Shown here: piece after piece, positions 1 to 33,240 of the stretch
How positions within the stretch are numbered: the stretch's first letter is position 1
How the letters are laid out: the number at the start of each line of letters is the position of its first letter
Assembly (NCBI GenBank): GCA_003990765.1
Contig: RBNJ01000317.1
Location: 1-33,276, forward strand
Length of the DNA stretch: 33,276 nucleotides
Direction of reading: 5' to 3'
DNA from: Jimgerdemannia flammicorona
Taxonomy: Eukaryota
Notes under the pieces: generated by a model
Seen by the model: only the letters and a program-made list of their open reading frames with translations
What the model was told of the DNA's origin: nothing
The model's database searches: none
Program-made: the position numbers and the translations under genes

Positions 1-1347
1 AAAAAAAAAAAAAAAAAAATATATTATGAGTTTTATATAACTTAAATAGTAGTAGAGAGAGTTGTGTCTTATTTATTTATGTATCTATATGAACTTGTTA
101 TTTATCTTGTTACCTATATATATTTAAGCTATTTATATATAAATATATAAAAAATAATATTATATAACCAGAATATTTTTCTATAAATAAAATAACTACT
201 AATTTAATAATAAAGTATCTTTTAAAGATAAGTTTTAAATAATATTTTTAATTAATATATTTCTTATATTTTCTACATGTTATCTCATTGAGCAGAATGT
301 TGGCTTATTGAAATAAATAAATAAATAAAAAGAATGTTGCCTTATTTGTGGCTTATGTACAACGTCATCAATTACGTCTTTAATGTCTACGTCACTGGAA
401 ATCAGTTACGCGTAAAAGCGTGTTGTTTCCAATATCAATAAGTATTGCTCTTTGCAATTACGTTCTACAAATATATTACAATACCCGGCTCGTTCACGGT
501 CCTGTATAACTAGTGAGCCTACGTTCCCATGAACATTACTCCGTCTTCCCGTCACAGCTCGCTTTGACTCACTCAGGTTTCCCTATCCCAAGTAAAGAAC
601 ATCTGCGAAAAGCTTCCGTGCAATGATAATGTAATCAGCCCAATTAACATACGCAACGGCGGCATTACCCGCACTGAAAGCCTGTTGAGGGAAACAAAGG
701 TCAACATTGTGCAACATTTCAATGGTTAGAATATCCCCCATAATTTTGAGATAACGTCCGAAATGGCGGGTGTAAGTGTTAAGGTCGGGTTTTTGCGGAG
801 GCCTGCTATAATGATTGCTTTTGTGTCTCCATGAATAGATGGGTCATTTCCTTATACGGGGTGCGTGCGAAATTCACGTTCTGTTGTAATGGGTGCCAAA
901 CAATAGATTTTTCTTTATACCTGACGCAACTCCCGCGAAAATATTTAAGCTATGAGCCCATGCGAAATCAGTTCATATCTCGTCGTGGGTCTATACATAC
1001 CGAACTTCACATAATATCTTATTGACACGAACGACTGTGGATAGTCAGATGCCTTATGACTATGCTTACCGATATGTTGAGATACCATGAGCGCCTCGAT
1101 CCTGAGGAAGTAAACATTATACCCATGTGCATGTAACAAAGCAACGCCACTACGCCCACTCACTCAAATTGGGAAACACTTACTGCGGTCAAAATATGAC
1201 GTCTTGCGTAAACTTTGGCAAATATTGCGCAGCACAGGAGAGCAGCAAATTAATGGCAACCCACCAGGCTATAAATTATTATAGTATGAAATTGAAATAT
1301 CTATCACCCCAAACTTTCCCAAAGATCATTAACCGACCAATCTCATC

Positions 1348-2316
1348 ATGGCTAGCTACAACCAATTCATGGCCAGTTACGACGACCAATTGCAACAGAA
1401 ATGGACAGCCTTTATGACAACACTTAGGGCTCAACCAACCAAACCAACTCAAGCAACCCTGCTTGTAGAAATCGGCCGTTTTCTCGACGAGCACCTGGGG
1501 ATCGATCAGGCCATTTTCCTGCGCCGCCTGAACATTGTGACCGAGGTTCTTGCGAGTTCGCGCAAAATGGATCCCGCCATCGAATTGTACAGAAATAATG
1601 GCGCTCATTGCCTTGATTCCGAAGGACTTGCCTCATCCGCCGGGTTCGGAGGGAAGAAAAAAGGACGTGTAGATAACGCCACAATCAACACACCAGGAAC
1701 AATATTATCATTATTCCTCGGCATTCCCGACACAAGTTTCCTCTGGCAGTTTTTGTTTCGGAAATTCGACGAAGAGGACTATCTGCTTGCAACGCTTGAT
1801 TGTTGTATCGTCTTCCAAGGGATCTCTTACAGCCAGAAATGCGACCCCCAAGTATTCCGCAAGCATAGAATCCTCGCCGAGAGTTGGACAAAAGAATTCA
1901 TGAAGAACGACAAAAAACTCTTTGAGGAGCTAAACGAGAAAAAGAAATCATTTCAAGCGAAAAACGGGAATAAGCCGACCGGGTACAAGGACACGCCCAA
2001 TCATTTCCTCTGGCTCTTTCACGACAGATACAAAGTTCGTGATGACAACAGCCCACTCTCCCTCAGCTCACTCGCCTCATTGAAACCGGATCAGTGGCAG
2101 CAGTTGCTGAGTCCTCCGTTGAGTAGGATGAAAATTATGCTCGGGAATCCAGCATATAACGGCATCCATCACCTTTGGGATCAGGGTTTCCAGCAAGATG
2201 TGATGAGCAAATACGGGGCGGGAGAACCGGAAAAAATAATCTTCCAGGCTTTTATGTCGGATTTAGGTAGCACCACTAACACAATGCGCGAATTTTCAAC
2301 GTCCGCAACTCAATAG
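1348..2316 (+). CDS. Hypothetical protein, 322 aa, apparently single exon, no recognised domain
   Basis: Uninterrupted ATG-to-TAG ORF with protein-like composition in CpG-retaining sequence; TATAAAT at ~1270 upstream. Confidence 0.65.
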   Translation: MASYNQFMASYDDQLQQKWTAFMTTLRAQPTKPTQATLLVEIGRFLDEHLGIDQAIFLRRLNIVTEVLASSRKMDPAIELYRNNGAHCLDSEGLASSAGFGGKKKGRVDNATINTPGTILSLFLGIPDTSFLWQFLFRKFDEEDYLLATLDCCIVFQGISYSQKCDPQVFRKHRILAESWTKEFMKNDKKLFEELNEKKKSFQAKNGNKPTGYKDTPNHFLWLFHDRYKVRDDNSPLSLSSLASLKPDQWQQLLSPPLSRMKIMLGNPAYNGIHHLWDQGFQQDVMSKYGAGEPEKIIFQAFMSDLGSTTNTMREFSTSATQ

Positions 2317-6580: not shown

Positions 6581-6896
6581 GGTCAAACCTATCAAATCGT
6601 TAAATTTGATATATATAAAAAATGGATCGACGACAAAAATTGAACCGAAACTTTACATCTATTTATGATGAACACATGCAATAAGCGGCTTTGCCAGTTT
6701 GCCGAAGTTTGAACTCTGTTCATAAATATATAGTGTCTATCCAATCTTCTCGATCCACGATTTAAATTTTTCGTCGATCCAATTTTTTTGATCAAAGTTT
6801 GTCGATCCAATTTTTTTGGTCCAATTTTTGACGTCGATCCATTTTTTTTTTTTTTGATCAAATTTCTTGTCGAACCACGATTTGATAGTTTTGAGC
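6581..6896. mobile_element. MITE-like non-autonomous element with 20-bp terminal inverted repeats
   Basis: ggtcaaacctatcaaatcgt (6581-6600) matches the reverse complement of 6877-6896 (gctcaaaactatcaaatcgt) at 18/20; internal repeats of gtcgatccaattttt, with one inverted copy near the left end. No clean TSD. Confidence 0.6.
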
Positions 6897-7058: not shown

Positions 7059-7233
7059 TTTCCGTTTCTTTGTCCGTTGATTCCGTTTCTCTGTCCGTTG
7101 ATTCCGTTTCTCTATCCGTTGATTCCGTTTCTCTGTCCGTTGATTCCGTTTCTCTATCTGTTGATTCCGTTTCTCTGTCCGTTGATTCCGTTTCTCTATC
7201 CGTTGATTCGTTTCTCTGTTCGTCGATTCCGTT
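7059..7233. repeat. 21-bp minisatellite, ~8 copies (ttgattccgtttctctRtccg)
   Basis: Direct tandem repeat; produces the ESTDRET and LIPFLCP repeat ORFs in the track. Confidence 0.95.
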
Positions 7234-7732
7234 TGTCAGATAAGTGTGGCGTGGGTAGCCACAGTATTGACAACTTGTTTTGAAGTTATACAAAACACCT
7301 GACGGATCTCTCATGGATCTCTCAAGAATCTGCACGAATTCATGGTACTTCTAAAGCCTTCAGCTATTTTTATTATTAAATTTTTCACTGCTGTATTTAC
7401 CACGGCCAAGGTGGGTGCAATTCGACATACCAGAACGACGCAACACGCGACAGGATTTGCAAAATTTCTGTTATCCATAAAATTCTACGCTCCACCTTTG
7501 TCCTCCTTCGCATTAGCGCATACTTACGAGCATGCACCCTGTCTTCTGCAGATATTGTGGCATGTGCGACGCCAATAATGGTTTATTTGTTTAATCGTTA
7601 TTATTATTATGTCATCCACGTTTGGCGCAGTCGAGTCAAACTCAAATCTTTCAACACTGAAATCCTCAGGTCCAACGAAAGATTAATCTCTCTCCAATTC
7701 TTCCCCATTTGATTGAGAAAAGGCCACAATCG

Positions 7733-10700
7733 ATGCGTGCCGTTGCCCTCGTTACGGTCATAGCTGCCCTGAGCCTGATGGGCTTGTCCTTCGCCAAGGC
7801 GCAGACGACAACTCCTCGCCCTATCGACAACGTCGGTAATAACCCCGCCGACGTCTACGCCGGTAGTCCTAACCAGCAGCTCTTGCGCCTGGACGTCCCG
7901 AGCACCTACTTCGCCGACGCTTCGGGTGCCCTCTTCCCTGGCTCGCTTCCCCCTGCAACCGTTGGTACCGATAACACGACCTATCCCGCCTTTCAATGCA
8001 TCGGCCTATCGCAGGTGCCTCCCGCGCAGCCATACCCGCGTTGCGTGAGCGACCTTGTCAACGGGTACACAAACGCGCCCTTGGCACTGCAAATAATTGA
8101 CCCTGGGGTGTTGTCGGTGCGAAAAGTATCGCATTTCGAGAGCTTCTGGGCTCAATTATTGTCATATGACCTATTGGACGTCGCGGCGAATGCTGAGCAG
8201 GTCAACATCGGGATCCCCATAGACGATGTAGCGATCAACACGGGGCCGAGTGGTGTGTCAGCCGCAGTAATAACCAATTCGAACCATAGCATCGAGTTCC
8301 ACAGAGCGTCGTACGTTGTCGATCCAGCCACTCAGCAACCGAATCGTACTGGGATCAATTCCGCAACGGGTTTCTTGGACGCTTCGTTTATTTATGGTTC
8401 GTCGTCCCGTATTTATCAATGTGAGGTTGTTTTATCTTATGCATGTTTTTTTTAAGACTCAATTCTTATTCACGCTTCCTTTGCCAATTGGTTACTCCTT
8501 GTTTGCTCCGCACAGGTTCCACTGACGCAGTCCTCCAGACCCTCCACGATGGCCCAGGAACTCATGGCAAGATGAAGCTCGTAGCTCAGAGCATTCCGTT
8601 TGGTAGCACTGGCGAGCCAGGTCCTCTCCCGCCACTCAGTACGGATGGCCGCTTTCTTTTGGGCAACAATCCGCTGCGCTCCGCAAACATCTACTCAGAT
8701 GCAATGACTATTATCTTTCTGCGCGAGCACAACCGGCAGTGTGACCGTCTATACCTGCTTCATGGGACCACCTGGACGGACGATCAGTACTTCCAAGAGG
8801 CGCGCAAGTGGGTCATCGCGTTCGTTCAAAAGATTACAGCCACGGAATATCTTGGTGTTCTCCTTGGGCGACCATTGCCGCCGTACACAGGGTATAAGCA
8901 GGACGTCAAACCTGGTATTGACACCTTTTTCGCCATGGCATCATTCCGGTACGGACACTCAGTGTTGTCGAGCGAATACCGTATTGTCGACTCGGACGCG
9001 CAGCTCATAGAGTCGTTCAGCTTGAAAGGCATTTTGAACTCGTCATACCTGATTCGCAACAAGTACGACATCGTCACAATCCTGCGGTCGCTTAGTTTGC
9101 AAATCCAGGAGGAGGTGGACGTATATTACGCTGACATGGTGCGTAACTATGCCAGCGCGCTCAATATCACCTACGATACCGCCAGCTTCGACCATCTCCG
9201 CGCGCGCGATCAAGGTCTTCCACTCTACAATGACGCTCGTCAGGCGTTCGGACTCCCGCGCAAGAATTTGTTTGCCGACATTACCAGAGACACCAAGGTT
9301 CAGAACCGCCTGGCGCAAATATATCAGAGTGTAGACCAGGTGGAGTCGCTGGTGGGTGGTCTGGCGGAGGACCACGTGGCTGGGGCAAACGTCGGCGAAC
9401 TCTTTAACGCCAGCCTCTGGAAGCAATTCACTCGACTCCGTGATTCTGACCGGTTCTGGTACCAGAACACCGGCATGTTCACCGCGGCGGAGATGGACAT
9501 AATCCAGCACACCTCCCTCCACGATATCATTATCCGCAACCTCGCTGACCCTGCTACGGGCAATCTACAAGCCGTTTCGGCCATTCAAACCTACACTGCT
9601 AGTCTGAACGACACGTCCCAACCGAACCCGCTCTCCGCTCTCCTCCCGGGCAACCTCTGGTTCGTTTTCGCACAATCTCTCAAGAATCTCGGCAACGCGC
9701 CCTCCAGCTCCTTAGTGGACCCGAGGGCCTACCCCAACTATTACCAATTCACCTCGCAATATATGATACAATGGAACACCGACCAGTCCGCAAACCGAGT
9801 CGACATTGCTCTCACCCTCCAATCTCCTCAAGGGTGGTTCGGCATCGGGCTTAACCCTCTTGGTGCTCTCTCAATGGAAGGCGCAGATTTCATCATTGCT
9901 TCCGCGTCGCCGAAGAACGGAGTCAGGCTGAACCTGTATCGATCGCAAGGGAACGCGCAGGCGCCGGTGAACGACACGGGCGCGTACGCTCTGAGCAATG
10001 TGAACGCCACAATTGTGGGAGGAACGGCCGTTGTCATAACGTTCACGCGGGCGATGGACACGGGTGTAGCTGGAAAGGCGGTGTTTGGTAATTCAAAAAT
10101 GAACGTGATCTGGGCGTACAATCCTGAGGACTCGAACCCAACGTATCACGGCGGGAATCGTGGGGGAATACAGATCAATTTCTTATCGGGGATGATTGCA
10201 GATATAAATAATGAGTCGCAACGGATGATGCAGTTGGTGCATGGCGTGTTTATGTTTGCTGTTTGGGCGGTTTTGTTTCCAGTATCGATATACATTATGA
10301 GGTCGGTAGGACGATTAAAATATTTGCTTGTCCCATATGTATTATGTATGCTTTTTTTTTTTTTTTTTTTTGCAGACCATTTTTTCTCACACACATCATT
10401 CACACCGCGACTTCAAAACAGATTTTCTAAACACTGGGAGATGTATCTTACAATCCACCGCGTTCTCCAGCTCATCGGCGGTGTTTCCGTTACTGCTGTT
10501 GGCGCCGCAGCCTTCGCGGCCGTCAACCCATCTGACCACACCGTACATGCGATCATTGGTGTGATCCTGTATAGCCTCATTTTTGTGCAAATCAACATCG
10601 GCCTGATTTCGAACTACAGCATGCAGCGGGTCGAATCCGTAAACACCGGCCTTATCCTCGTCATCAAGAAGACCCACAAATATTTTGGTGTCACATTGCT

Positions 10701-12918
10701 AATCGTCTCCCTCGTCAACATCTATTTCGGTATCATCACCTACGACCCCACTACAATTTGGGCGAATGTTTACTTGTGTTGGCTGGGAATACTCGTGGCC
10801 ATCTTCGTGATCAAGCAAATTTCGTACTCATGGCAAGCTATGCGGAACTCGAATAAGGGACTGGAAGCCAAGGCAGACGAAGACAAGCTAGGCATGAGCC
10901 AATTCATTAATGGTGATGTGATGGAGAAGCTCGCGCTCATCACCTGGAAAGATTTCAACGAACGCATAGCAAGCGGCGCCGTTCTCGTCATGGTGGATGA
11001 CTTTGTCTTTGACATTATGGGCTGGGTTGCCTCTCACCCTGGAGGGTCGATGATTCTGAAGCGTGCCAATGGGACAGATATCACCAACGATCTTTTGGGA
11101 CTTCGCCGCGACACTGGCAGCGTATTGAAGAAATCCCCGCCACTACGCCGCCAGGGCTCAGAACCCGGTCCACTAGACAGGAAAGAAAAGGGAGAGTTCG
11201 GCGTTTCCTCGGAGCTGGAAATACACTTGGACAAGGAAAAATTGAAGCGAGCCAGCACCCAAGTTGCCGGTGTAACTTCCAAAATAGGCAGCCAGAGTTT
11301 CTTCATCAGCATACTCCCCGGTGGCTCGATTGCCTCTACGATGGATTACATCAACTCGAATTTCTTCCAGCCAGGCGAGATGGCATGCCACGTACATTCC
11401 GACTACGCCAAACGCAAACTCGCCTCTTTGGTCATCGCTCGTATTGACAACTCGGACGACGGCGGCGCGATGGGCCTCCCAAGCCCCAACCTATCAGGCC
11501 AACGCAACGGACCGGCATCGCCCCCAGGGTCACCCACGGGCATGGTTATGTCCTCTAGTCCGGCGCCAGGCGTGGTATTCCCAAAGTCGACCGTGCCGTT
11601 CCTGCTCCAGGCCCCTTCAACGCGCCGTCAGTTTCGTCGATACGTCCTTATCGAAAAGGTAAACATCGGGCTCGGCGAGCAACCGGTGGTGGCGTTCACG
11701 TTCTCGCCGGTACATGCGGTCAGGGAGGATTTCAGTTTACCTACACTACCGGGGCAGTATGTGGAGCTCATGTCAGAGGTTCGGAAGGAGATGGTTAAGC
11801 GGCCATACAATGTTGTGCGCGGCTCGTTGAGCACGGATTTCACAATCTACGTCAAAAATTATGCGAACGGTAAAATGTCGAGCCACCTCAATCTGGAGCG
11901 CCAGGTTAAAATGGAAATCAGCGTTCGCGGTCCTTTCGATATAACGCACCGCATCGAAGCCGCGGACATTATCTATCGACGACCCAGGGACGTTGATCCT
12001 AACCTTGCTCCTCGACAAGACTCCATCATGTTGAACCCAGAACGTGCCGATGGACGGTGGCGACATGTGTATTCTATCGTTGGAGGAACGGGAATCACGC
12101 CGATTCTCCAACTGATTAAATACTACCAGTACATTCTGCAGGAGGAAGAGCACCACCGGCACGCCAAATCAGCGAATTCTGCACCTGACTCCCCACAAGA
12201 CACGCCAATCGTCACGTGGATCCACATCCTTTTCGCCAACACCACCGTCCTGGACGTTTTCGAAAGCGGGAGGCTCGAATCCCTTGCGACAGACACGGGG
12301 AACCGGTATCTGCGGATTACGATCATCTACATTTTCTCTGAACCGCCAGAGAAGTGGGAAGGTCTGAGTGGGTTCTTGGATCTGGAGAAGGTGGAGGATT
12401 GGGTGCGAAGTCGCCAAGAAAAAATGATGCCATCGACGAACGAATATCGGAACAACAGCGAACCCGTACAAGGAGGGTTACTGTTCGTTCGGGAATCGAA
12501 AAACCGTGGCGCTATCCGCAAGAGCCACTCGATCGGCGATATCACGCAAAGCTCCTCAGCCGGATTGTCACCGCGTGACACGAGTCAGCGCAATTTACGC
12601 CCACAACTGCAGTGGCAAGAATCGGCTGTGCAAGAGCTCGAGGTACCAACAATTACTGTAACTTTGGCAGAAAAGGAGGTAGGGTACAATAGTAATGGGC
12701 ATCCGGATACGACAGAAGAAATCTCGATCCTGCCACTGTCGAGGTCGCTAACGGCTGTTGGAATCGACGCGATTACTAAAATCTCCACGGACGAGAGTCG
12801 GCAGAATGTGGTGATCGTCTGCGGCCCGGAAAAGATGATAGAGCACGTTAAAACCATCTTGACGCAAATAGAGGTGGAGGAGGTTACGGAGAAGAGCTGG
12901 ATTCTTACATTGTATTGA
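7733..12918 (+). CDS. Multidomain membrane redox protein: signal peptide + animal-type heme peroxidase + DOMON + cytochrome b561 + cytochrome b5-like + FAD/NAD(P)H reductase (b5R/FNR family); 1648 aa; exons 7733-8396, 8516-10301, 10422-12918
   Basis: Signal peptide MRAVALVTVIAALSLMGLSFAKA. Peroxidase motifs RPIDNVGNN, FLDASFIYGS (rebuilt across intron 1), FLREHNRQC, FRYGHS, RARDQGLPLYN, QFTRLRDSDRFWY. DOMON motifs GWFGIG, SMEGADF, YHGGNRG. Four b561 His in hydrophobic helices (VHG, IHR, VHA, THK). b5 motifs VFDI..W..SHPGG..GTDIT and HS..A. Reductase motifs RPY, GKMSSHL, RGPF, GGTGITP, LFAN, CGP. Both GT-AG introns keep the frame. Confidence 0.93.
8397..8515 (+). other. Spliceosomal intron 1 (119 nt, phase 1)
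   Basis: gttcgt...cacag; removal joins ORF 7709-8455 to ORF 8443-12918 and restores IYGSTD. Confidence 0.9.
10302..10421 (+). other. Spliceosomal intron 2 (120 nt, phase 2, in frame, no stop codon)
   Basis: gtcggt...aaacag with a long poly-T tract; removal gives the b561-like IYIMRFSKHW..IHRVLQ. Confidence 0.8.
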
Positions 12919-14111: not shown

Positions 14112-15595
14112 TCATTGACGATCCTTTATCCGATACTTGCATCCTTCATATACACAAACCGCAGGGTACACCATGTCGGGAACATTTGCCCAGGTCGCCC
14201 CATAATTGATTCCATTGATTGAAATGGTCCAGGTATGTTGAGTTTGGTTTAAATGCAAAGATATAATATCACCATTTTGAATACCTTTGCCGTAATTTGC
14301 ATTGAGACACGATGTTCCGCCATAAATATATCCTCTGTTGTATTGAGTGTAGAAACTCCATGCACCTTGTCGGCTTAACATGCTTCCATCAAACAGTGTG
14401 AATTCCTCCTCAACGAGCCCAATCATACAGGTGACTTGGTTGGCAGACGATCCAATGGATTCAACGATAATGTCCCATTGGCATAGACCGTCGTGAATCA
14501 CCGTTCCGGGGACAGAAAGGCGTGCTGTCTGCGGCAAAGTCCCGGATGGAATCTCCACAACCTTCCCGTCTTTGGAAACCACCAATCCAGACCCGATTTT
14601 CGATCGATCCCACTGGAGATTGCGACTTGCGGACGGGTGACCTGTAGGGCATACGGTGTTCTTGCAGGCGTGGTGGCAAAACGCCATATAGAGTGGAGAC
14701 GTCTCCGCAAAGGCGTCAATTGCCTCCGCGACGGTCTTGAGTCGATGCGGGCAAATGAGCGTGAGGTCAAATTGGCTCATCATTTTGAGCAGCAAGGCAC
14801 GCGACGCGCCATCACCTAACCGGACCGTGCCAGCGCAGCCAGGAACCATGTTGTAGATGTTACGCAGAATAGCGTGGCGCTCCGAAGCCGAAGGCGCCTT
14901 CTCGTTGCGTCGCCAGGCCCAGTCGACGATGCACAGTAACAGATTGTCTACGGGCGTGGAAAGGGTCGCTACCTCGACGAGGAGCAGCTTGAGGGCTTCT
15001 TCGGAGAGATCGGTGAGCTCTCCGATGGCGAACTTGCGTGTGCGGAAGGGGTGGAGGAGGACGTCATAGAGGTCCTTGTTGGCTTTGCTCCAAGGTATGG
15101 CGGCGACGGCCTCATTGAGCAGGGATAAGGCCACTCCAAAATCGGCGAGGTTGTACGCGCGTTCCAGCACCATCTTCATGAGCTTCGGGAGGAGGAGAAA
15201 GCTTGATGCACGGTATATTGCTACTGCGATGGAATTGTTGAAGGCGATGTCGATGGATTCGGTGTAAATAAAGCCGAGGATGGTGTTGAGCACCGCGGAG
15301 GTGATGTCGTTGAGCACAACACGATTAGAGGAACCTTTTTGCATGGTTCCATACAGCATTGTCTTGAAGACTGGACATCTTTCAAGAGAAGATGGAATTT
15401 AATGTAATGAAAAACTACTAACACAACTGCATAAGAGAACCGAAATCAGACAAACCTTGAAGCCAGTATGGCACGGCATGCGCCTAGCTCGACACCGTCA
15501 GCACAGACGATTGTCACATCGTCGTAGGTTGGGTCTTTCCATATGCAGGCGATATCGTCCTTGAGACTAAAACCACTGTCGCATTGGTCGGCCAT
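14112..15595 (-). CDS. BTB/POZ + SPRY(B30.2)-like domain protein, copy 1; 468 aa; exons 15595-15456 and 15378-14112
   Basis: BTB motifs DVTIVCADG..LGACRAILASRCPVFKTMLYG and ILGFIYT. SPRY-like C-terminus WDIIVE..MIGLV..YG..IQNGDIISLHLN..ING..YG..VYPAVCV. 77-nt GT-AG intron 15379-15455 keeps the frame. Confidence 0.9.
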
Positions 15596-15754: not shown

Positions 15755-16145
15755 CAGCCCTGGTATTTTTAATCTCATTTTTATCCGCAGTCCTGTTATT
15801 TTTAACTTTATTTTTATCCGCAGTCCTCCGCAGTCCGGGTATTTCCGACTGCAGTCCTCCGAAGTTCCACAGTCTCCCGATCGTGTGACGGGAAAACAAA
15901 CCTACAGGCGCAGCGTGCGCAGCGTGAGCATATGGTCTTGAAAGAAGCTTCTCTGCAGTCCTGGTATTTTCGTCTGCAGTCCTGACTCTCGTCATTTTAG
16001 TTCCGCAGTCATAGAATTTTCGGTATTTTCTTCAGGAGCCGAGCTATTTTAGTCTGCAGTCCTGACATTTTCGTTCCACAGTCCTGGTATTTTAGTCTTT
16101 TAGTCTGTAGTCCTCCGCAGTTCTGGCATTTTTGTCCACGGTCCT
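15755..16145. repeat. Degenerate repeats of ggtattttYgtctgcagtcct, upstream of BTB-SPRY copy 1
   Basis: Many copies of (c/t)gcagtcct with attttt spacers; a homologous tract lies at 19795-20005. Confidence 0.8.
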
Positions 16146-16457
16146 TCTTAAGATTATCTATAATATATTGAGAAGATTCTTAAATATCTTAAATATATAT
16201 ATATATATATATATTAAATTTAAAAAGTATAAATTTAAAGAAATAAAGATTGTATATCTTAAATTTAATTTAAATACTTAATTTAAAATAATATATTAAT
16301 CTTATATTACTAGTATTTAATTATTGTTAAAAAGATATATATATTGAAATTTATACTTAACTAATATAATTAATATTATATAAAAATATAACTCTATTTA
16401 TATTATAATAATAAGTTAATACTTAGCTATAGTATATATATAGCTATAGTAGATAAC

Positions 16458-16558
16458 TAGTGCTCTCAAATAAATCAAATCAATTCAAATTAAATTGAAT
16501 TGAGAGTTATTCAATTTGAATCAAATTGGACCTTTGATTCAATTTATTAAGAGCATTA
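16458..16558. mobile_element. ~100-bp MITE-like relic with decayed terminal inverted repeats
   Basis: Left end tagtgctctcaaataaatcaaatcaa versus reverse complement of right end taatgctcttaataaattgaatcaa; internal aattcaa/ttgaat repeats; no TSD found. Confidence 0.5.
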
Positions 16559-16844
16559 TAATTTTTTTAAAAAAATAAAATAAAAAAAAAATAAAAATTA
16601 ACAGATATAGATATTATTAAATTTAAAATATATATAATATTTTATTGTATTATTTACAATAATTGTGATTTATATAGAAATGAACTTTAGCTTTAAAGTA
16701 ATTAGAGTAATATATAGCTTAAATATTAAAAATTATATTTTTATAGGCTTTTATTAGTTTTTTATTATTATTAAAGATAGTATTTTAGATAACACATTAA
16801 TATAATATATATAATACTTAGTTTTAAATATAATAATATAAAAA

Positions 16845-17160
16845 CAAGTAAGCTAACAAGTCAGCTAATAAGTAAGCTAAAGGTTTAAATATAATGGTAA
16901 TACTAACTAATAAGTAAGCTGAAAGCTTTAAATATAACAGTGATACTAGTTAATAAGTGAGCTAAAATATATCAGTTATTTAGTAAGCTAAGAGCTTAAT
17001 ATATATATAGATAGCAGTGATACCAGCTAACAAACAAGAGCTTTGAATATAATAGTAATGCCAGCTGACAAGTGAGCTAAGAGCTTTGAATGTAGTGGTG
17101 ATGCAATAAAAAAGCTTTAAATATGACAGTGACGCAAGTAGTGTGATTAAGAGCTTCACA
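16845..17160. repeat. Degenerate ~43-bp tandem repeat in an AT-rich block
   Basis: Recurring aagtRagcta-agctttRaatat-cagtgatac units. Confidence 0.65.
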
Positions 17161-18190: not shown

Positions 18191-19676
18191 TCATCGACGA
18201 TCCCTTATCCGAAACTTGCATCCCCGATATACACAAACAGCAGGGTACACCTTGTCGGGGAGATTGCCCCAGGCCAACCCATAATTGATTCCATTGATTG
18301 ATATGGCCCAGTTATGGTCGGTTTTGTTTAAATGCAAAGTTATAATATCGCCATTTTGAATGCCTTTGCCGTAATTTGAATTGAGACACGTTGATTTGCC
18401 ATACGTATATCCTATGTTGTTATGGATGTAGAAAGTCCATGAACTTTGGTGGCATAACATGCTTCCATCAAATTGTGTGAATTCCTCTCCAACGAGTCCA
18501 ATCATACAAGTGACTCGGTTGCTAGACGATCCAATGGATTCAACAATAATGTCCCATTCGCATAGACCGTCGTGAATCACCGTCCCAGGGACAGAAAGAC
18601 GTGCTGTCTGTGGCAAAGTCCCCGATGTAATCTCTACAACCTTCCCATCCTTGGATACCACCAATTCAGAACCGATTTTCGATCGATCCCACTGAAGATT
18701 GAGACTTGTGGACGGGTGACCTGTAGGGCATACGGTGTTCTTGCAGGCGTGATGGCGAAACGCCGTATAGAGTGGAGAGGTCTCCGCAAAGATGTCAATT
18801 GCCTCCGTGAGGGTCTTTAGTCGATGTGGGCAAATGAGCGTGAGGTCAAATTGGCTCATCATTTTGTGCAGCAAGGCGCGCGACGCGCCATCTCCTAACC
18901 GGACCGTGCCAGCGCAGCCAGGAACCATGTCGTAGATGTTAAGCAGAATAGCGTGGCGCTCCGAAGCCGACGGCGCCTTCTCGTTGCGTCGCCAGGCCCA
19001 GTCGATGATGCACAGCAACAGATCGTGTACGGGAGTGGAAAGGGTCGCTATCTCGACGAGGAGCAGCTTGAGGGCTTCTTCGGAGAGAATGGTGAGCTCT
19101 CCGATGGCAAACTTGCGTGTGCGGAAGGGGTGAAGGAGGACGTCATAGAAGTCCTTGTTGGCTTTGTTCCACGGTATGGCTGCGACGGCCTCATTGAGCA
19201 GGGATGAGGCCACACCAAAATCTGCGAGGTTGTACGCGTGTTCCAGCACCATCTTCATGAGCTTCGGGAGCAGGAGAAAGCTTGATGCGCGGTATATTTC
19301 TACCGCGATGGAATTGTAGAAGGCAATGTCGTTGGATTCGGTGTAAATAAAACTGAGGATGGTGTTGAGCACCGGGGAGGTGATGTCGTTGAGCACAACA
19401 CGATGAGAGGAACCCTCTCGCTTGTTTCCGTACAGCATTGCCTTGAAGACTGGACATCTTTCAAGAGACCAGATGGAATTTAATGTAATGAAAACCGACG
19501 AATACCACTACATAAGAGAATCGAAATCGGACAGACCTTGAAGCCAGAATGGCACGGCATGCACCTAGCTCGACACCGTCAGCACAGACGATGGCCACAT
19601 CGTAGTAGATCGGGTCTTTCCATATACAGGCGATATCGTCCTTGAGACTAAAACCACTGTCGTATTGATCGGCCAT
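18191..19676 (-). CDS. BTB/POZ + SPRY(B30.2)-like domain protein, copy 2; 468 aa; exons 19676-19537 and 19457-18191
   Basis: Colinear paralog of copy 1 with the same exon lengths (140 + 1267 nt); 79-nt GT-AG intron 19458-19536. Confidence 0.9.
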
Positions 19677-22884: not shown

Positions 22885-23170
22885 TCAGAGTTATGAATGT
22901 AGTTCAAACTGTGGCAAAGTCTCTGAGGTGGAAGGAGTCTAGAACAGTCTGTTTCAGTATATGTAGTATAGTTTCAGCCAGGGCTTTAGTCCATTTCAGT
23001 TTACTCCAACCATAGTATACTTAGTTAGTATAATTTAGGAGTACCTTTATTCACTGCAGAGCAGTATGCCCCACCTCTCATTATCTAGCCAAACAATAGA
23101 CTGAACAATAGTTTAGTATCAGTACTTTGCATTAGTCTCTAGTAGTAGCTCTCAAGCTGTTTTCATACAC
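22885..23170 (+). repeat. Ngaro split direct repeat A1
   Basis: tcagagttatgaatgtagttcaaactgtggcaaagtctctgagg...caagctgtttt..acac, repeated at 27261-27550. Confidence 0.92.
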
Positions 23171-24375
23171 ATGCCCTCTACATGCCATTCTCAAGGCATT
23201 CAGCTGATGCCTACACTGGCTCCACCTTATGGACACTCATCAATCCCAAATACAGCTGGCTTATATATATCATGGAAGGAGCATCTCATTGTACTCTACT
23301 GTGAATATGAGTTACCTGCTGATGGTACTAAAAACATGTTGATTACACAGCTTGAAGACTCTTATCCATTATTTGTTCTGGTGCCTCAGGTCAGTTTACC
23401 TATAGATGACATGTTAATTGAGCACCTTCTCCCTGCTATCATGGTACACCTTGCAGGCAACCCTCCCTCAGTCCCAACACCCACACCTCTGGCCTTCTCC
23501 CCCATGGTACCATTCAGCCTAGCTCTAGATAGTCTAAACTCTATTATCTTGCTTCCAGCCCTTTCTCTTGACCCACAGGCCCCTGCCATGCTGGTGCCAT
23601 ATGGTGAGTCTCAGTTATCCTTTGTTTCTGACATGGTTTTACAATGTGACTGGGTACCAGCAGATCTCCTGGCCTCTCTCAATGCAGGAGATTATCAAAT
23701 CCTAGCTGAATAGAAAGGCTCTGCACTGCTCTCATGGGTCAACACCAAGTGGAAAATAGATAACTTCCTGCTCAATTACCACCTTGACTTCCCCTTCTGG
23801 CTCAAGGCTCTCTTTAATATTTGCAGTATGCTGCTAGCCCTTGGGGTCATGAAGTCTGTAACCCACATAACATATATAGCCCAGCTCTTAGCTCACATCA
23901 TCTTTGTCATTAAAGCCATCAATGACTGCTATGCCTGGGCTACACTACAGCATTTTGACCACCAGATCTGTACCTTGAAGACTTCCTTCCCAGAGCTAGA
24001 CATTGGTAATCCAGAGGCAGTATAGTGTACCTTTGAGATAGTCATTGACCAACCAGCATCTGCCCCAGTAGCATATCAATCAAACTGCCACATTAATTCT
24101 GCTACTTCACCCACTAGCTCCAAAAACTCATCTATGTGATCTCTTCTGTACTTTCAGTGTGGGGTGCAGGGACATTTGTCTACTTTCTGCACCTAAGCAC
24201 CTCTCCAATACCCAGCATTTCCTATCAAACTAGATGATCTCTTGTCCCATAACAGTATCCCCAGCTCCATCTGCCAGAACTTCAATAGCTATGGCTGTCA
24301 CAGTAACTATGGCAGATCCCACATTTGCATTTTCTGCTATAAGCCCCATATAGCCATGACATGCCCTGCTTGCTG
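23171..24375 (+). pseudogene. Decayed gag-like ORF of the Ngaro element
   Basis: Knuckle relic YFQCGVQGHLSTFC (~24150-24190) and Cys/His motif CQNFNSYGC...HICIFCYKPHIAMTC (~24272-24365); several stops. Confidence 0.7.
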
Positions 24376-27775: not shown

Positions 27776-30473
27776 TTAAATAATTAAGATAAAGTATACT
27801 ACTAAAGAAAAAAGAGTATACTATACTTGTGACAAGAAGAGTTATCTCTCCTATAACTACTTAGAAAAGAAGAAAAAGGGACTATTCAATAGCTTAAGTA
27901 TATAATATTGAAACTATTATTATAATTAGAGAAAAATTAGAAGTAAAGACTACTGATAATATCATTAAGATCTAGAAAATATACTATATACTATTATTTT
28001 AATCAAAGCTTACTCTACTGATATAGACTATAATCTCTATAGTAGTCAAGATCTCACTATTCTACCAGACTCCAATACTGAGATTGAAATAAAAGCCCTT
28101 AAAGGAATCTATATCTGTCTAACTGAAAGAAGTAATCTAATTAAAGACTTCAATATTAGACTAGTAGGAGGAGTAATATATTAAGACTTTACTATAAAGT
28201 TTGAGTTATTTTATACAATTTTGATAACATATCCTTTGATGTCAAAGCTGATTAAGAAATTGCTCAAACAATTATTGAAGAGACCCAAGATAATGTAGAG
28301 ATTAAAAGTTCAATCTTTATCTTTAAGTTTAAGTTCTCTATATTAGTTTAGCACTTTACTCACCTCTAGTCTATAAACAACTGACTCTGAAACAGTTTGA
28401 AATAAAGCAATACATAGTTCTGAATTGACAAGGTATCATAGATACTAAAGTCTATTCCAGACTTTGTGAAAATTGTAGAGGACTATAAAGAGTTGGTTTT
28501 CTGCCCTTTGTCTATTCTTAAACAACTCTACCTCTTTCTTTCTTTAAAGGGTTTTTAGTTTTTTCTATCTTGTTTTTTGCTTCTGAGATACCTTCATCAC
28601 CTCTTTTCTTTCTCTCCTTCATTTTCTCTGACTCATGTACCAAGCTTCCTAAACTAGAGGACTCCATAAGAGTTGAGAGGTTCTTTTATTGGGACTACTG
28701 TCTTACTATAACTCAATTACATAATCTATAGAACATGCTATTTCACACATAAGAAATTTCTAAGACACTTCAAATAAAGCATGCCATTGTGTATGATATA
28801 GCAAACCAACTCTTCACAGTCTTCCACAATGCTCGCAAAGTCTGGGAAAGACTTTGGTGTCTACGGCACCTTGTCCGTCTGGGAATTCAAAATTCTACAT
28901 CTAACTTTATTTTATTGACAGTGCACTCCTAACCACCTGTGAAGGCCTACTTACAACAAAGAGCTACACATACTGTGCACAGGCTTCTCTAAGTGACCAG
29001 GCCGAGTGCATGGCTGGTGCGAAATGTAGTCCCGCCACATTATATAACTCTAGTAAAGGACGTGTTTATCAGTCACATATGCCTGAATTTGGTCTTTTCG
29101 TGAAGTGCTAGGTAAGCACGCCATAAGTAAATAAAACGATACCCACCGCCAATGTTTCTCCTTAATGCTGAACTTCGCCAACGTTTTCCAAAGCGTGAAC
29201 TTTACCAATCGTTCCACGACCTTCCCGATTTCGACATGGCAATCATAAAAGAGTGTGTCAGTCGGTTATTAATTTTTCGCCTCCATGTCAGCTCGGTGTT
29301 AAATTACAACATGCATCTTAGGAACAAACTTTTGAATCACGAACAACGTGTGCGTGAAACTTGGAATGCTCGAGGAAGAAAACTCCACGTTGCTTGGGCT
29401 GTTTCGCAGCAAATATACGGATATGTGACTTTCTAAACCGTAACCGTTCTCCCCAGTATGAAGATGGCCTGACTTGTGGAACAGCGCTATCATTTTTATG
29501 TTGACATTTCCGCATTGATGCCAATTTCTAGTGTTTTTTTGGATTGTTTTTTTGGTGAAATAACAGGATGATTTTTAAGCCATACGTTGATATCTCCGAG
29601 TGTTCGTGTGACTTAAAAATCATACAGGTATATATATATATATACGTTAATAAAAAGGACTGGAGGCGATTCAAGTTCGCAATAATCAATCGAGATATGA
29701 CGTATACTCGTTCTAAATTTGAAATCTGTATTGAGACCAGGTCATTTCTTGGCGACACGTCGTCGTCAGATATTGCATGTTAGAACGGCATAGACAAGGC
29801 GGTTCAAGTTCTCAAAAATCCGCAATATTTCGTCGGAGATGCCTACAAGTAAATTCGTAAAATATTTCAGCGGCACTTGAGATAAAATTTAAGAGAAGTT
29901 TTCCGTGCTAATTTTCTTCAGATAGAGTTGTGTAGTCGAAGGAAGGCACGGTGCTTCAAGATTTCAGATGGCCTAAGCATTGAGAAACGTAATTGATTAA
30001 AGCTTCAAGTGCGTTCGTGAATGCAAAAAAAAAAAAAAAAAAAAAAAAAAAGAATAAAAGAAAGAAATAAATAAAAAAAGCGGGTGAATTCGTTCGCGCG
30101 ATTATATATCTAGTAGAGAATTATAAACCACTTTAATTATATACTGATTTTTTTTATGTTTTAATTCTGAATCGTAATTTTACGGACGATAATACTGCCA
30201 GCCGATTCCAGCCAGTCGAGCTCATCTGCGCACTAAATACGTACGACACCGCTGATTCCACATGTTTAGTTTTCATTGCATTTATTACCGAAATTTACAA
30301 ACACGAGTGGCTTTTGCCTCCCGAAAAGAAAAAAGAAAACATCGTAGGTGCGATGTCGTTATCGATACAATATACATGTCGCAATGAAAAATCGCGCTAA
30401 CTAAGCCATTGAAAACCTCGCCAACACGCCACAACATCGACCATGGCACCTTGACGACTGTTTGTTGGGTTGA

Positions 30474-30923
30474 TCAATGGTCATCGTCGTCGTCGCAAGG
30501 GTCGTCGCAAGGGTCGTCGCAAGGTTTATGGTGGTCGTCGCAATCATCGTCGTCGTCGCAATCATCGTCGCAATCATCGTCGCAAGGGTCGTCGCAAGGG
30601 TCGTCGCAAGGGTCGTCGCAAGGGTCGTCGCAAGGGTCGTCGCAAGGGTCGTCGCAAGGGTCGTCGCAAGGGTCGTCGCAATGGTGGTGGCAATGGTGGT
30701 CGCAATGGTGGTCGCAATGGTGGTCGCAGTCGCAATCCTTTGACGGAGGAGACTTCTTCCCCCTCTTTTCAACGCCTTTATGAACGGCAGGCGTAGGATC
30801 TCCTCTGCGTGCGATGGCGGCACCAGCCTTGTGGCTGTGGCGGATGGGGATCGGGGTGGACACGACAACAGTGGCGAGCATCGCCAGAAGGACGAAGAAG
30901 ACGAAGGTGTTGGAAAGCCTCAT
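30474..30923 (-). CDS. Small secreted Cys/Asp/His-rich repeat protein, 149 aa (putative metal-binding pre-pro-peptide)
   Basis: Signal peptide MRLSNTFVFFVLLAMLATVVVS, basic pro-region with RR and KR, then (CDHH)3, CHHH, (CDDP)8, CDDD...; TATA box upstream. Confidence 0.82.
   Translation of the reverse strand: MRLSNTFVFFVLLAMLATVVVSTPIPIRHSHKAGAAIARRGDPTPAVHKGVEKRGKKSPPSKDCDCDHHCDHHCDHHCHHHCDDPCDDPCDDPCDDPCDDPCDDPCDDPCDDPCDDDCDDDCDDDDDCDDHHKPCDDPCDDPCDDDDDH
30480..30736. repeat. 12-bp coding minisatellite (gtcgtcgcaagg and variants)
   Basis: Direct tandem repeat that leaves several reading frames open. Confidence 0.95.
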
Positions 30924-31008
30924 GACGATGGAGATGAGAGGGGATGAGGGTATGAGATTGCGAGTTGGGCTGATGAGGCTGTCGGTCAATGAGTGCTGAG
31001 GATGTGTG

Positions 31009-31016
31009 CTTTTATA
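31009..31016 (-). promoter_or_regulatory. Putative TATA box (TATAAAAG) of the secreted repeat-peptide gene
   Basis: Consensus TATAAAAG ~86 nt upstream of the ATG at 30923, followed by a pyrimidine-rich leader. Confidence 0.6.
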
Positions 31017-32399
31017 CACGGAATTTGGGCGGATGGCGGTTGCTCGACATTTTTTTGTGTATGTCCACAAGAGTCCGTAACGGTCTGATTTTTTTTTTTT
31101 AAAAGCGTATTGTTATTTTTGGGTGCTTTGATCAGGCGCTTCGGCAGCAAGATTTAATTTTACCGCAACTCATAATTTTATCGCAAACAATAAACACGTT
31201 CCACCTCACATTCACTTGTTAATAGTCCGATCTTATTTTAGATCATACAGGTCGACTGTCCAGGTTGTTTACTGCGCGACAAGCAACCCATGTACTATGG
31301 GACATAATTCAAATAGACGTATGATACTTATAAATAGATTACAAAAAGAAAAATAAGTCACTAGATACTAAATATGTAACAATGCACGCGACATAATACA
31401 TGCGAAAATGTCCAAAATAAAGCAACCATATTCATTTGGTGGGGATCCTTCTCCAACACTTTGTATGCCACGCCGACTTCAACATTTATTAGATGTAGGT
31501 GGTTATTGTTCAAGATACAATTATATCGTCTCCATAACAATATATAACAATTTAGGAATATATTAGCAATTTATAATAACCTCATATTTAATTATAGTTA
31601 AACGCCCAAATTGACCGTCTTTCGTGACCAGTTCGAATGCATGGGTAACACTCTATTTATAGATGCAAATCCTCTTGGACGGCCGTCAACAAAGCTCCAA
31701 GACCAGTCCAGTTGGCATGTGGTGCGTACTGATATTTCGACTTGGCAAAAAAAAAAAAAAAAAAGGATTTAACAGGCGACGCCTAAAACAGACCGGTTGA
31801 GAAATGTTCCGCTGACTTATGTCTACCAATAAATCAATTACTGACAGTTGAGGGATTGGCTTGATCTAAATTTAGGATAAACGTGACATAGAAAATACCT
31901 CTGATGAAAAGAGTGATAAAGAGGCTAACGGTCAGAGCAACCTAACCCAACCCATGTACGCAATGGAGCCGACCCAGAAATTTAAGAACCCCAACCCTGA
32001 GGCACTTTAAACCCGTCTTTGAACCAAACCAGCGACTCATCCCGTCGATTTTATTCCATTTCGAAATTTAGAAGTTCTTTTACTTGACGACAATATGTCC
32101 AAATTGAATTTACATTAGCTTGTTGTATTCACCTTATTTAGATGAATCCAGTATATATAATAATGGTAATCAAATTTTCATATATTTTCAAAAAATAACA
32201 GAATTTCAAAATTTGATATAAATTTTTAAATAGAATCAAATGAATCGGTTAAGTCACTGTTCAGGTTCAAAGAAGGATCAGATACGAATTTGGTCAGTCA
32301 TTTCTTGGATTCGAAGTACTACAGGGTTGGCTATTTTTTAGATCAAATATGCTGCATGCTTGCTCATTTTTTAGTTTTTAGTTTTGGGTCCTTAAGTTG

Positions 32400-33240
32400 A
32401 GTTTGAAATACTATACTTAAAATAGTAACCATTAATGTATATATATAACTTCTGTAATATATTGAAAAATTACTTGATATATTAAGTAATAATATATTTT
32501 TTTAATAATGATCTGAGGAGTAAATTTTAAAAAATCAAAATAATACTATTGAATAAATATAAGACAGACTATATTACTTTATTTAAACTTTATAAATACT
32601 TATACATATTATAATATATAGTGTAATATAGTGGACATGGATCTTGATAAGTTGGTAGAATTCTGGATTTCATATGAAAAAGAAAGAAAGGATATATAAA
32701 GAAGACTTTTTTGACTGAACTGAACTAACTCTGATTTATTCACTCTAAAATACTGGATTATTTATATAGATTTGTATACTAATTTTGCTACTAAATATAA
32801 GGCTAAGTAATAAGTTATTTTATATAAAATTTCAAGTAGAATTTCATCTATATGTATCTCAGGTAGAATCTTATATGAAATCCTATCTGATATTTGTAAA
32901 AGTAATAACAGTTTCACTGATAATATTTTAGCTATATATAATATCTACAGTAAAGATAATTTCTATACTATAATAAATAAGGAAATTGGATTCAGATACT
33001 ACAATTAAATATCTATTTCTTAATTTTATTTTATACCATATACATATCATAATAGATAATATTTTAATATATATTAAAGAATTTTTCAAAATATGTAAAG
33101 ATAATATTGAAATATATAACTTTAGTAATAAGTAATTTTTTTTTTAATAATAGAAATATATTATTTATAATAATATTATTAATTTTTATTAAATTATTAT
33201 TTATATATTAAAAAGTACTAGCTTAATAGAGATAAATTAC
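32400..33240. other. Very AT-rich, CpG-depleted block, probably decayed transposon sequence
   Basis: Composition only; no family motif recognised. Similar blocks at 1-280 and 16150-16840. Confidence 0.4.

Follow-up and report, generated by a model that had tools for sequence, protein, structure and literature searches.

A single Jimgerdemannia flammicorona gene joins a peroxidase fold, DOMON, b561, cytochrome b5 and a b5 reductase in one predicted transmembrane oxidoreductase

The CYBDOM proteins (plant HYP1/CRR, animal FRRS1/SDR2) carry an extracellular DOMON domain N-terminal to a two-haem cytochrome b561 core, and to our knowledge the known b561 and CYBDOM proteins all need a soluble donor in the cytosol. 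The self-contained transmembrane NAD(P)H oxidoreductases that we know of (NOX, DUOX and FRE) all use a ferric-reductase domain. On the cytosolic side, cytochrome b5 reductase and cytochrome b5 relay the electrons of NADH singly. CYBDOM proteins are proven trans-membrane reductases of ferric and cupric acceptors (PMC10784544, PMC10784552); electrons of cytosolic ascorbate cross the plasma membrane to ferric or cupric acceptors, and the DOMON domain is apoplastic (PMC10784544). The DUOX ectodomain is described in the accessible part of PMC4420034 (Zamocky 2015) as mutated and inactive, with an obscure function. Here we describe a gene in a stretch of 33,276 nt of Jimgerdemannia flammicorona DNA (assembly GCA_003990765.1, contig RBNJ01000317.1, positions 1-33,276, forward strand), which is called the window throughout. 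With moderate confidence, we read it as one gene for a self-sufficient transmembrane NADH:extracellular-acceptor oxidoreductase of the CYBDOM type, convergent with DUOX.

Two long open reading frames (ORFs), 7661..8455 and 8425..12918, were listed on the forward strand of the window. Joining three exons gave a product of 1648 amino acids with one terminal stop, which is exactly the length claimed for one spliced frame in an earlier, sequence-only reading of this DNA. The gene model consists of the following parts.

7733..8396, forward strand: exon 1; its start codon is the first ATG of frame 7661..8455, and the exon encodes the signal peptide (7733-7798) followed by an N-terminal stretch of the peroxidase fold
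8397..8515, forward strand: intron 1, 119 nt, GT..AG, at the frame shift between ORFs 7661..8455 and 8425..12918
8516..10301, forward strand: exon 2, encoding the rest of the peroxidase fold, DOMON and b561 helix 1
10302..10421, forward strand: intron 2, 120 nt, GT..AG, in frame and T-rich
10422..12918, forward strand: exon 3, encoding b561 helices 2-5, b5 and the reductase; stop codon 12916-12918

Intron 1 has three frame-compatible GT donors (8397, 8409 and 8421), the choice of which alters at most eight residues. Donor 8397 is preferred because the resulting ...IYGSTDAVL... matches the length of the Jimgerdemannia proteins, which read ...IYGS(T/N/S)DAVL... at this junction. Intron 2 is in frame and is therefore invisible from the ORF alone. 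Its 40 codons have counterpart residues in none of the 26 homologues of alignment A1 (see below), in which both flanks are gap-free, and in an AlphaFold2 model with the intron read through, the stretch encoded by it had a predicted local distance difference test score (pLDDT) below 50. An acceptor for intron 2 at 10375, past the T-run, was rejected, since it has no plausible in-frame donor and the homologues fit 10302..10421 exactly. Contigs of two sequencing runs (X1 and X2, neither recorded as RNA) cover the gene piecemeal and span neither intron. One X1 contig, about 90% alike, is without 11112-11228 (117 nt, 39 codons, within the b5 insert described below); this segment was rejected as an intron because of its ends, CA..TT, and the contig is read as coming from a paralogue or relative that differs here by an in-frame change of length, which suggests that the length of the b5 insert varies. 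We read the locus as a single gene. A 1466-codon open frame with six ordered Pfam domains, kept across phyla, is far beyond chance.

The product carries, in order, a signal peptide, an animal-type haem peroxidase fold, a DOMON domain, a five-helix, four-His b561 core, a cytochrome b5 and a b5-reductase/FNR domain. Pfam was run on the window's own translation, and the bit scores were compared with the curated cut-offs. All six families exceeded them, in accord with the domain order of the sequence-only reading.

8117..9549, forward strand: animal haem peroxidase fold, spanning intron 1 (An_peroxidase, PF03098, 256.1 bits, 8e-76, plus 30.7 bits, 1.6e-7, for the exon-1 part, residues 129-224; cut-off 25); distal motif WAQLLSYD at 8147-8170, proximal FRYGHS at 8944-8961
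9754..10149, forward strand: DOMON (PF03351, 48.5 bits, 1.3e-12; cut-off 32.7); candidate haem ligands Met675 (9874-9876) and His766 (10147-10149)
10222..10833, forward strand: b561 core with five transmembrane (TM) helices, spanning intron 2, from hydropathy and Cytochrom_B561 (PF03188, 24.2 bits, or 27.6 on a shorter segment; cut-off 23, marginal); His797, His829, His859 and His902
10942..11451, forward strand: cytochrome b5 (Cyt-b5, PF00173, 30.8 bits, 3e-7, profile positions 1-53 only; cut-off 23.7); HPGG at 11035-11046 with the first His (His1022), second His (His1142) at 11395-11397, and a low-complexity insert of ~95 residues between them
11734..12915, forward strand: b5-reductase/FNR domain, FAD-binding at 11734-11937 (FAD_binding_6, PF00970, 35.5 bits, 1.3e-8; cut-off 21.1) and NAD-binding from 12076 (NAD_binding_1, PF00175, 38.6 bits, 1.8e-9; cut-off 22)
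11800-11808, 12082-12102 and 12820-12828, forward strand: reductase motifs RPY, GGTGITP and CGP, respectively, with a long insert ahead of CGP

The motifs that had been picked out earlier (SMEGADF, YHGG, HPGG, RPY, GGTGITP, LFAN and CGP) are all present, with HPGG starting at 11035. No FRD/NOX domain, FAD_binding_8, NAD_binding_6 or EF-hand was detected in the window protein by Pfam (E<=0.01), which upholds the description of the chain as built from non-NOX parts; NAD_binding_6 is a secondary match in 16 of 27 relatives.

A word-indexed search returned 37 proteins, of which the 30 fungal ones have the peroxidase-DOMON core in common; the best matches were Jimgerdemannia flammicorona proteins with 80-84% identity. 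In alignment A1, 26 further proteins have their domains in the order of the window protein; among all its members, DOMON was present in 27 of 27, An_peroxidase and Cyt-b5 in 26 each, FAD_binding_6 in 25, NAD_binding_1 in 22, and Cytochrom_B561 (E<=0.01) in 15. The full six-domain chain is found in Rhizophagus, Diversispora, Funneliformis, Acaulospora, Paraglomus, Entrophospora, Dentiscutata, Mortierella, Podila, Powellomyces and Geranomyces. The taxonomic range, which the sequence-only reading had left to an architecture search, emerged from Pfam analysis of the homologues: the chain occurs across fungal phyla, spanning Glomeromycotina, Mortierellomycotina, Endogonales, chytrids and Blastocladiomycota, and in one xanthophyte transcript.

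An exhaustive HMMER search with the exon-3 product returned 428 proteins at E<=1e-3 and 143 at E<=1e-10. A Pfam scan of 43 of the best 150 matches detected the peroxidase in 18 and none in 25; some of the latter are probably truncated models, and in 12 of the 25 the NAD-binding domain is interrupted by an SH3 domain. The class with the peroxidase also includes Gigaspora, Hyaloraphidium, Blastocladiella, Sorochytrium, Lobulomyces/Clydaea, Quaeritorhiza and the Tribonema gayanum contig; the class lacking it includes Spizellomyces, Globomyces, Gorgonomyces, Thoreauomyces, Boothiomyces and a bicosoecid. Chytrids and a bicosoecid have the DOMON-b561-b5-FAD-NAD form, and we therefore take the donor-plus-CYBDOM unit to be the conserved core. 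In Tribonema gayanum (P0125, a xanthophyte transcriptome contig), peroxidase through reductase lie on one assembled transcript, so the family is not confined to fungi; this copy may reflect ancient origin, horizontal transfer or contamination. A quick maximum-likelihood tree (DOMON to C-terminus, 33 rows, 789 columns, with only the Shimodaira-Hasegawa-like approximate likelihood-ratio test, SH-aLRT, for support, a midpoint root and several long branches) placed the window protein within an 11-row Mucoromycota clade with a support of 99. The chytrid group that lacks the peroxidase and bears SH3 nests within the peroxidase-bearing Blastocladiella, Sorochytrium and Geranomyces, and at least two to three changes in peroxidase presence are needed on the tree. 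An old fusion from which the peroxidase was lost later fits this tree.

The residues expected to hold haem in the DOMON and b561 parts are strongly conserved. In a 31-row alignment, Met675 and His766 of DOMON were found in 30/30 and 31/31 non-gap rows, respectively, and the four b561 histidines in 28/28, 25/25, 25/25 and 25/25. In 32 rows covering both architecture classes, Met675 and His766 are each kept in at least 90%, and three b561 histidines, HPGG and the second b5 His are invariant. By analogy we infer that Met675 and His766 are the axial ligands of the DOMON haem. The Met/His pair and four-His b561 core of the sequence-only reading are thus features of the whole family, and the arrangement, with DOMON ahead of b561 and both ligand sets conserved, is like that of CYBDOM proteins.

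An AlphaFold2 model of the DOMON-b561 segment, in which intron 2 was read through, had a mean pLDDT of 73.9 and a predicted template modelling score (pTM) of 0.57, and showed a confident beta-sandwich (DOMON pLDDT 80-93) and five long helices. The DOMON model matched the folds of the DBH DOMON (4zel, Z 15.7), 6jt6 (cytochrome domain of pyranose dehydrogenase, PDH, Z 13.7) and 1d7c (cellobiose dehydrogenase, CDH, Z 12.7); matches to CDH/PDH cytochrome domains ranged over Z 12.5-13.7, with 4qi3 at 3.1e-5 in Foldseek. CDH is alike in having a DOMON-like b-haem domain with Met/His ligands, supported here by the fold match, and a fused flavoprotein that delivers single electrons to extracellular acceptors; it differs in being soluble and secreted and in oxidizing sugars outside the cell, whereas in the window protein the flavin would be cytosolic and the electron must cross the membrane. 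For the helix bundle, the best natural helical match was human Dcytb (5zlg, Z 12.2, root-mean-square deviation 3.0, 165 aligned residues, chain 42-224), and Arabidopsis b561 (4o6y) reached Z 11.4. Designed helical bundles scored alike (Z 10-11.4), so the fold match is consistent with b561 but not decisive. The first ~41 residues of Dcytb, which the model leaves unmatched, presumably hold its first helix; if so, a five-helix core with DOMON outside fits. The DOMON plus TM1 segment had no meaningful match in a sequence search of the PDB.

Topology was predicted from a 19-residue Kyte-Doolittle hydropathy scan and loop charge. A hydrophobic, signal-like segment at the N-terminus (residues 1-24, ending AKA/Q) and five membrane segments (791-819, 831-852, 856-882, 903-925 and 926-954) were recognized. 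The only other peak, at residues 999-1021, is weak and belongs to the b5 beta-core, so it was not accepted as another TM helix; scan and model both have five helices, against six in b561. Lys and Arg abound in the loops that follow TM1, TM3 and TM5; those following TM2 and TM4 are short, with an acidic or neutral character. With a cleaved signal peptide, the loop charges predict an N-out, C-in orientation, with peroxidase and DOMON outside and b5 and reductase inside; this positive-inside pattern agrees with the topology proposed earlier. Ten N-glycosylation sequons were counted in residues 23-790. As the four histidines stand at the starts of TM1-4, His797 and His859 would be close to the outer face, and His829 and His902 close to the cytosolic one. 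This alternation on TM1-4 is the b561 pattern, with two putative haem sites at opposite faces.

In the cytosolic module, the first b5 His is present in 27/27 and the second in 28/29 rows of the 31-row alignment, and RxY and the GxGxxP Gly are each present in 28/28, so that the b5 ligands, and the flavin and nucleotide motifs noted earlier, are likewise conserved in the family. The b5 domain of the Powellomyces protein P0029 is compact and insert-free. The nearest solved relatives of the C-terminus are NADH-cytochrome b5 reductases (b5R3 structures; 7w3o, 6.8e-5), which suggests NADH rather than NADPH as the donor. The module is similar to b5R/b5 and their fusions (NCB5OR, the C-terminal half of nitrate reductase) in its HPGG-type b5, its FAD_binding_6 and NAD_binding_1 domains and its RxY, GxGxxP and CGP motifs; unlike them, it has b5 followed by the reductase, is tethered to a membrane cytochrome, and has long inserts in the b5 and NAD domains. 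In a number of chytrid relatives (P0076, P0077, P0078, P0101, P0103, P0113, P0114, P0120, P0131, P0135, P0143, P0145 and P0030), an SH3 domain is inserted in the NAD-binding domain just past the GxGxxP strand, at a place where the window protein has an insert of ~25 residues. An SH3 domain in a cytosolic reductase hints at regulation by proline-rich partners, by analogy with the organizer logic of NOX2.

The ectodomain was matched in the PDB to 8s6c (LPO-like, 1.2e-49), 6erc (Dictyostelium peroxinectin A, 3.2e-46) and 7d3e (DUOX1, 1e-29); exon 1 alone gave no meaningful match in a sequence search of the PDB. The distal motif of peroxidases is (W/F)GQ(F/L)(L/I)DHD (Q-x-x-D-H-D), whereas the window has WAQLLSYD. 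In a HMMER alignment of the 84%-identical orthologue P0001 with 8s6c, S-Y aligns under D-H; the distal His is thus replaced by Tyr145, and the haem-linking Asp is absent, with Ser at its position. In the same pair, GNNPLRSAN stands against the canonical GDxRxNE, with Pro under the distal Arg, an Arg two residues later, and Ser under the haem-linking Glu. The distal column of the 31-row alignment contains, in 26 non-gap rows, nine Met, seven Tyr, seven Phe and one each of Leu, Gln and His. In a wider set, 5 of 18 rows have the distal His (Powellomyces, Blastocladiella, Sorochytrium P0150 and two metagenomic proteins), and two of the 18 have the full GDxRANE (Powellomyces P0029 and Sorochytrium P0150). 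In the window gene and its Mucoromycota relatives, then, the distal position is Tyr, Phe or Met and the Asp and Glu haem links are gone; the canonical site is found in some zoosporic fungi only. Other positions of the site are kept, namely His369 in 24/25, Asn460 in 29/30 and Asp146 in 25/26 non-gap rows of the 31-row alignment; by the assignments for MPO and LPO, we take these to be the proximal His, its partner and the Asp of the calcium site.

Because the distal His is replaced and the Asp and Glu haem links are gone, classical peroxidase chemistry in the window protein is doubtful; because the proximal His-Asn pair is kept, the ectodomain probably still binds haem. The earlier labels 'peroxidase' and 'peroxide-reducing enzyme' are therefore weak for this lineage, given Tyr145, the lost Asp and Glu equivalents and an Arg off its canonical column. 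[quoted passage not shown] We read these sequences as pointing to a peroxidase fold that was catalytic ancestrally and that lost acid-base catalysis in Mucoromycota while it kept haem binding, and we read the decay, by analogy, as running parallel to that of the DUOX ectodomain. The ectodomain family would then be a natural series from canonical to degenerate peroxidase sites.

We infer the following continuous path for the electrons, from donor to acceptor. The cytosolic b5-reductase-type flavodomain would take two electrons from NAD(P)H, probably NADH, and pass them singly to the fused cytochrome b5. The b5 domain would reduce the b561 haem on the cytosolic side, the electron would cross the membrane to the outer b561 haem, and from there it would pass through the extracellular DOMON haem to the acceptor. 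A covalently attached, NADH-driven donor module would thus replace ascorbate, the usual soluble donor of CYBDOM proteins. The likely output would be one-electron reduction of an extracellular acceptor, which may be Fe3+ or Cu2+ chelates or O2. The peroxidase-fold cap would not act as a classical peroxidase here; it may serve as the final haem stop, or have an accessory or regulatory role as in DUOX. Midpoint potentials are ~0 mV for b5, ~+20 to +170 mV for b561 haems and ~+130 mV for DOMON/CDH haems. On these values, the steps to DOMON are downhill, reduction of a ferric peroxidase haem is uphill, and reduction of Compounds I and II is very favourable. A canonical ectodomain, as in Powellomyces and Sorochytrium, could therefore act as an NADH-fed peroxidase; the ectodomain of the window protein is more likely an accessory or terminal haem.

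Several observations weigh against this path. The b561 assignment has marginal Pfam scores and fold scores no better than those of some designed bundles, and a nine-row b561 family profile searched against the PDB gave 4o6y at E 0.94, which is not significant; the b561 core may still use an ascorbate-type donor. Two features of the cytosolic module could affect its function: the ~95-residue insert parts the two His ligands of b5, and the FAD motif is RPYN rather than RxYT (the fourth position is Asn in 4 of 28 rows and Thr in 24). Finally, the public Jimgerdemannia flammicorona locus, 98-100% identical, is annotated as two genes (P0040 and P0041).

One could envisage that the protein is a generator of reactive oxygen species (ROS) like DUOX, in which O2 is reduced to superoxide or H2O2 at the DOMON, outer b561 or peroxidase-fold haem and the ectodomain uses, channels or regulates the oxidant. 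The design logic is that of DUOX, being a single chain in which a peroxidase-homology ectodomain of degenerate site is joined to a membrane core with two haems and to an FNR-type flavoprotein in the cytosol. The PDB matches of the ectodomain include DUOX1, and some zoosporic relatives keep a canonical peroxidase able to consume the product. The active site has decayed in parallel with that of DUOX as described in the accessible part of PMC4420034, although the proximal His, kept here, is absent in DUOX according to the same source. On the other hand, the window protein has a b561 core instead of the ferric-reductase/NOX core, additional DOMON and b5 haem modules, and neither EF-hands nor an FRD/NOX domain by Pfam, and b561 and DOMON haems are known, in the accessible text of PMC10784544, as reductases of metals and the ascorbyl radical, not of O2. 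We consider this function unlikely; judging from its domains, the protein may work like DUOX, but it is not a member of the DUOX/NOX family.

A transmembrane NADH peroxidase, in which the DOMON haem re-reduces Compounds I and II so that cytosolic NADH detoxifies extracellular H2O2, for example that of a plant oxidative burst, is improbable for the window gene. The potentials would suit it, as reduction of Compounds I and II is strongly downhill and formation of a ferrous peroxidase haem from DOMON is uphill; Powellomyces P0029 and Sorochytrium P0150 retain the distal His with GDxRANE, and many holders of the chain are plant-associated fungi. In the window gene and 25 of 26 aligned rows, however, the distal His is absent, and with the Glu and Asp equivalents lost, the formation of Compound I should be severely impaired.

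We give little credence to a broken chain, in which b5 and its reductase act on a substrate in the cytosol or the membrane, erythroascorbate or another soluble donor feeds the CYBDOM part, and the fusion serves co-localization only. In its favour, b5 has the large insert, and structural evidence of b5 docking onto b561 was not obtained; a complex prediction with the Powellomyces b561 segment, its b5 domain and three haems (no alignment and no controls) scored 0.00 and gave no verdict. Against it, both architecture classes, across phyla, retain the b561-b5-reductase order with a short linker past TM5, and fused b5 domains normally feed their partner, as is established for nitrate reductase and fused desaturases.

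The public models mentioned above are a 532-residue heme peroxidase labelled 'LOW QUALITY PROTEIN' (P0040), which stops past TM1 and in which spurious splicing omits most of the C-terminal half of the peroxidase, and a 622-residue FAD-binding protein (P0041), which begins at an internal Met directly after HPGGS and whose 3' 622 codons read intron-free, in agreement with exon 3. Two separate genes of this kind are very improbable, even though a second Jimgerdemannia pair (P0038/P0042) shows the same split, since neither P0040 nor P0041 covers b561 helices 2-5 or the HPGG half of b5, the frame is open without a break over 8425-12918, and in more than 20 other species a model with one gene is usual. 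On the last two grounds, we take the public split to be an annotation error. Two 56%-identical paralogue models (P0002 and P0004) likewise omit b561. With the gene split or truncated in the annotation of its nearest named relative, comparative surveys would miss it.

We therefore return to the NADH-driven oxidoreductase as our preferred reading and class the protein as a CYBDOM reductase rendered self-sufficient, with a peroxidase-fold cap. It departs from CYBDOM proteins in that these need soluble cytosolic ascorbate, whereas here b5 and b5 reductase are fused on the inside and a peroxidase fold on the outside, and in that the similarity of its b561 to solved b561 chains is not significant. 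A search of the full-text literature, with subscription papers outside its scope, found no description of peroxidase-DOMON-b561-b5-reductase or DOMON-b561-b5-reductase proteins, and neither architecture is described in the accessible parts of PMC3591440, PMC10784544, PMC4420034 and PMC8027222. FRD-DOMON fusions, which have a different membrane core, are noted in the accessible part of PMC3591440. The hint of novelty in the sequence-only reading thus stands as far as characterization in the literature searched is concerned; the architecture itself is already in public databases, in dozens of fungal entries labelled automatically, for example as 'heme peroxidase', 'Peroxidase mlt-7' and 'DOMON domain-containing protein frrs1L'.

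Around the gene, a 21-nt tandem repeat (7060-7234, 8.4 copies, 91% matches) lies ~500 nt upstream of the start codon and may be promoter-proximal; a shorter array of a 14-nt repeat (6776-6829) lies farther upstream. Downstream, two similar ORFs on the reverse strand (14115-15398 and 18194-19507), each with an N-terminal BTB/POZ and a C-terminal SPRY domain, are likely tandem paralogues. The long ORFs at 1333-2313 (forward), 23117-23710 (forward) and 30404-31112 (reverse) had no Pfam match at E<=0.001. Two segments are very AT-rich (16001-17000, GC 0.19; 32001-33000, GC 0.25) compared with a window background of ~0.45.

If the preferred reading is true, a b561 chain that brings its flavin and b5 donor with it would have solved transmembrane NAD(P)H oxidoreduction independently, and if every haem-binding module holds haem, the polypeptide would carry one FAD and five haems and rank among the longest cofactor relays on a single chain. 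We also put forward, tentatively, that it represents another 'dual oxidase', independent of NOX, in which one b561-based chain of seven redox centres would carry NADH electrons to the surface in fungi and at least one stramenopile, and whose ancestral true peroxidase decayed in plant-symbiotic Mucoromycota as in vertebrate DUOX. The chain is conserved in arbuscular-mycorrhizal, Endogonales and Mortierella lineages, in which the extracellular chemistry of iron, copper and ROS at the plant interface is poorly understood. If the dual-oxidase reading is true, it could be an unrecognized extracellular source or sink of ROS, or a ferric or cupric reductase, at the mycorrhizal interface.

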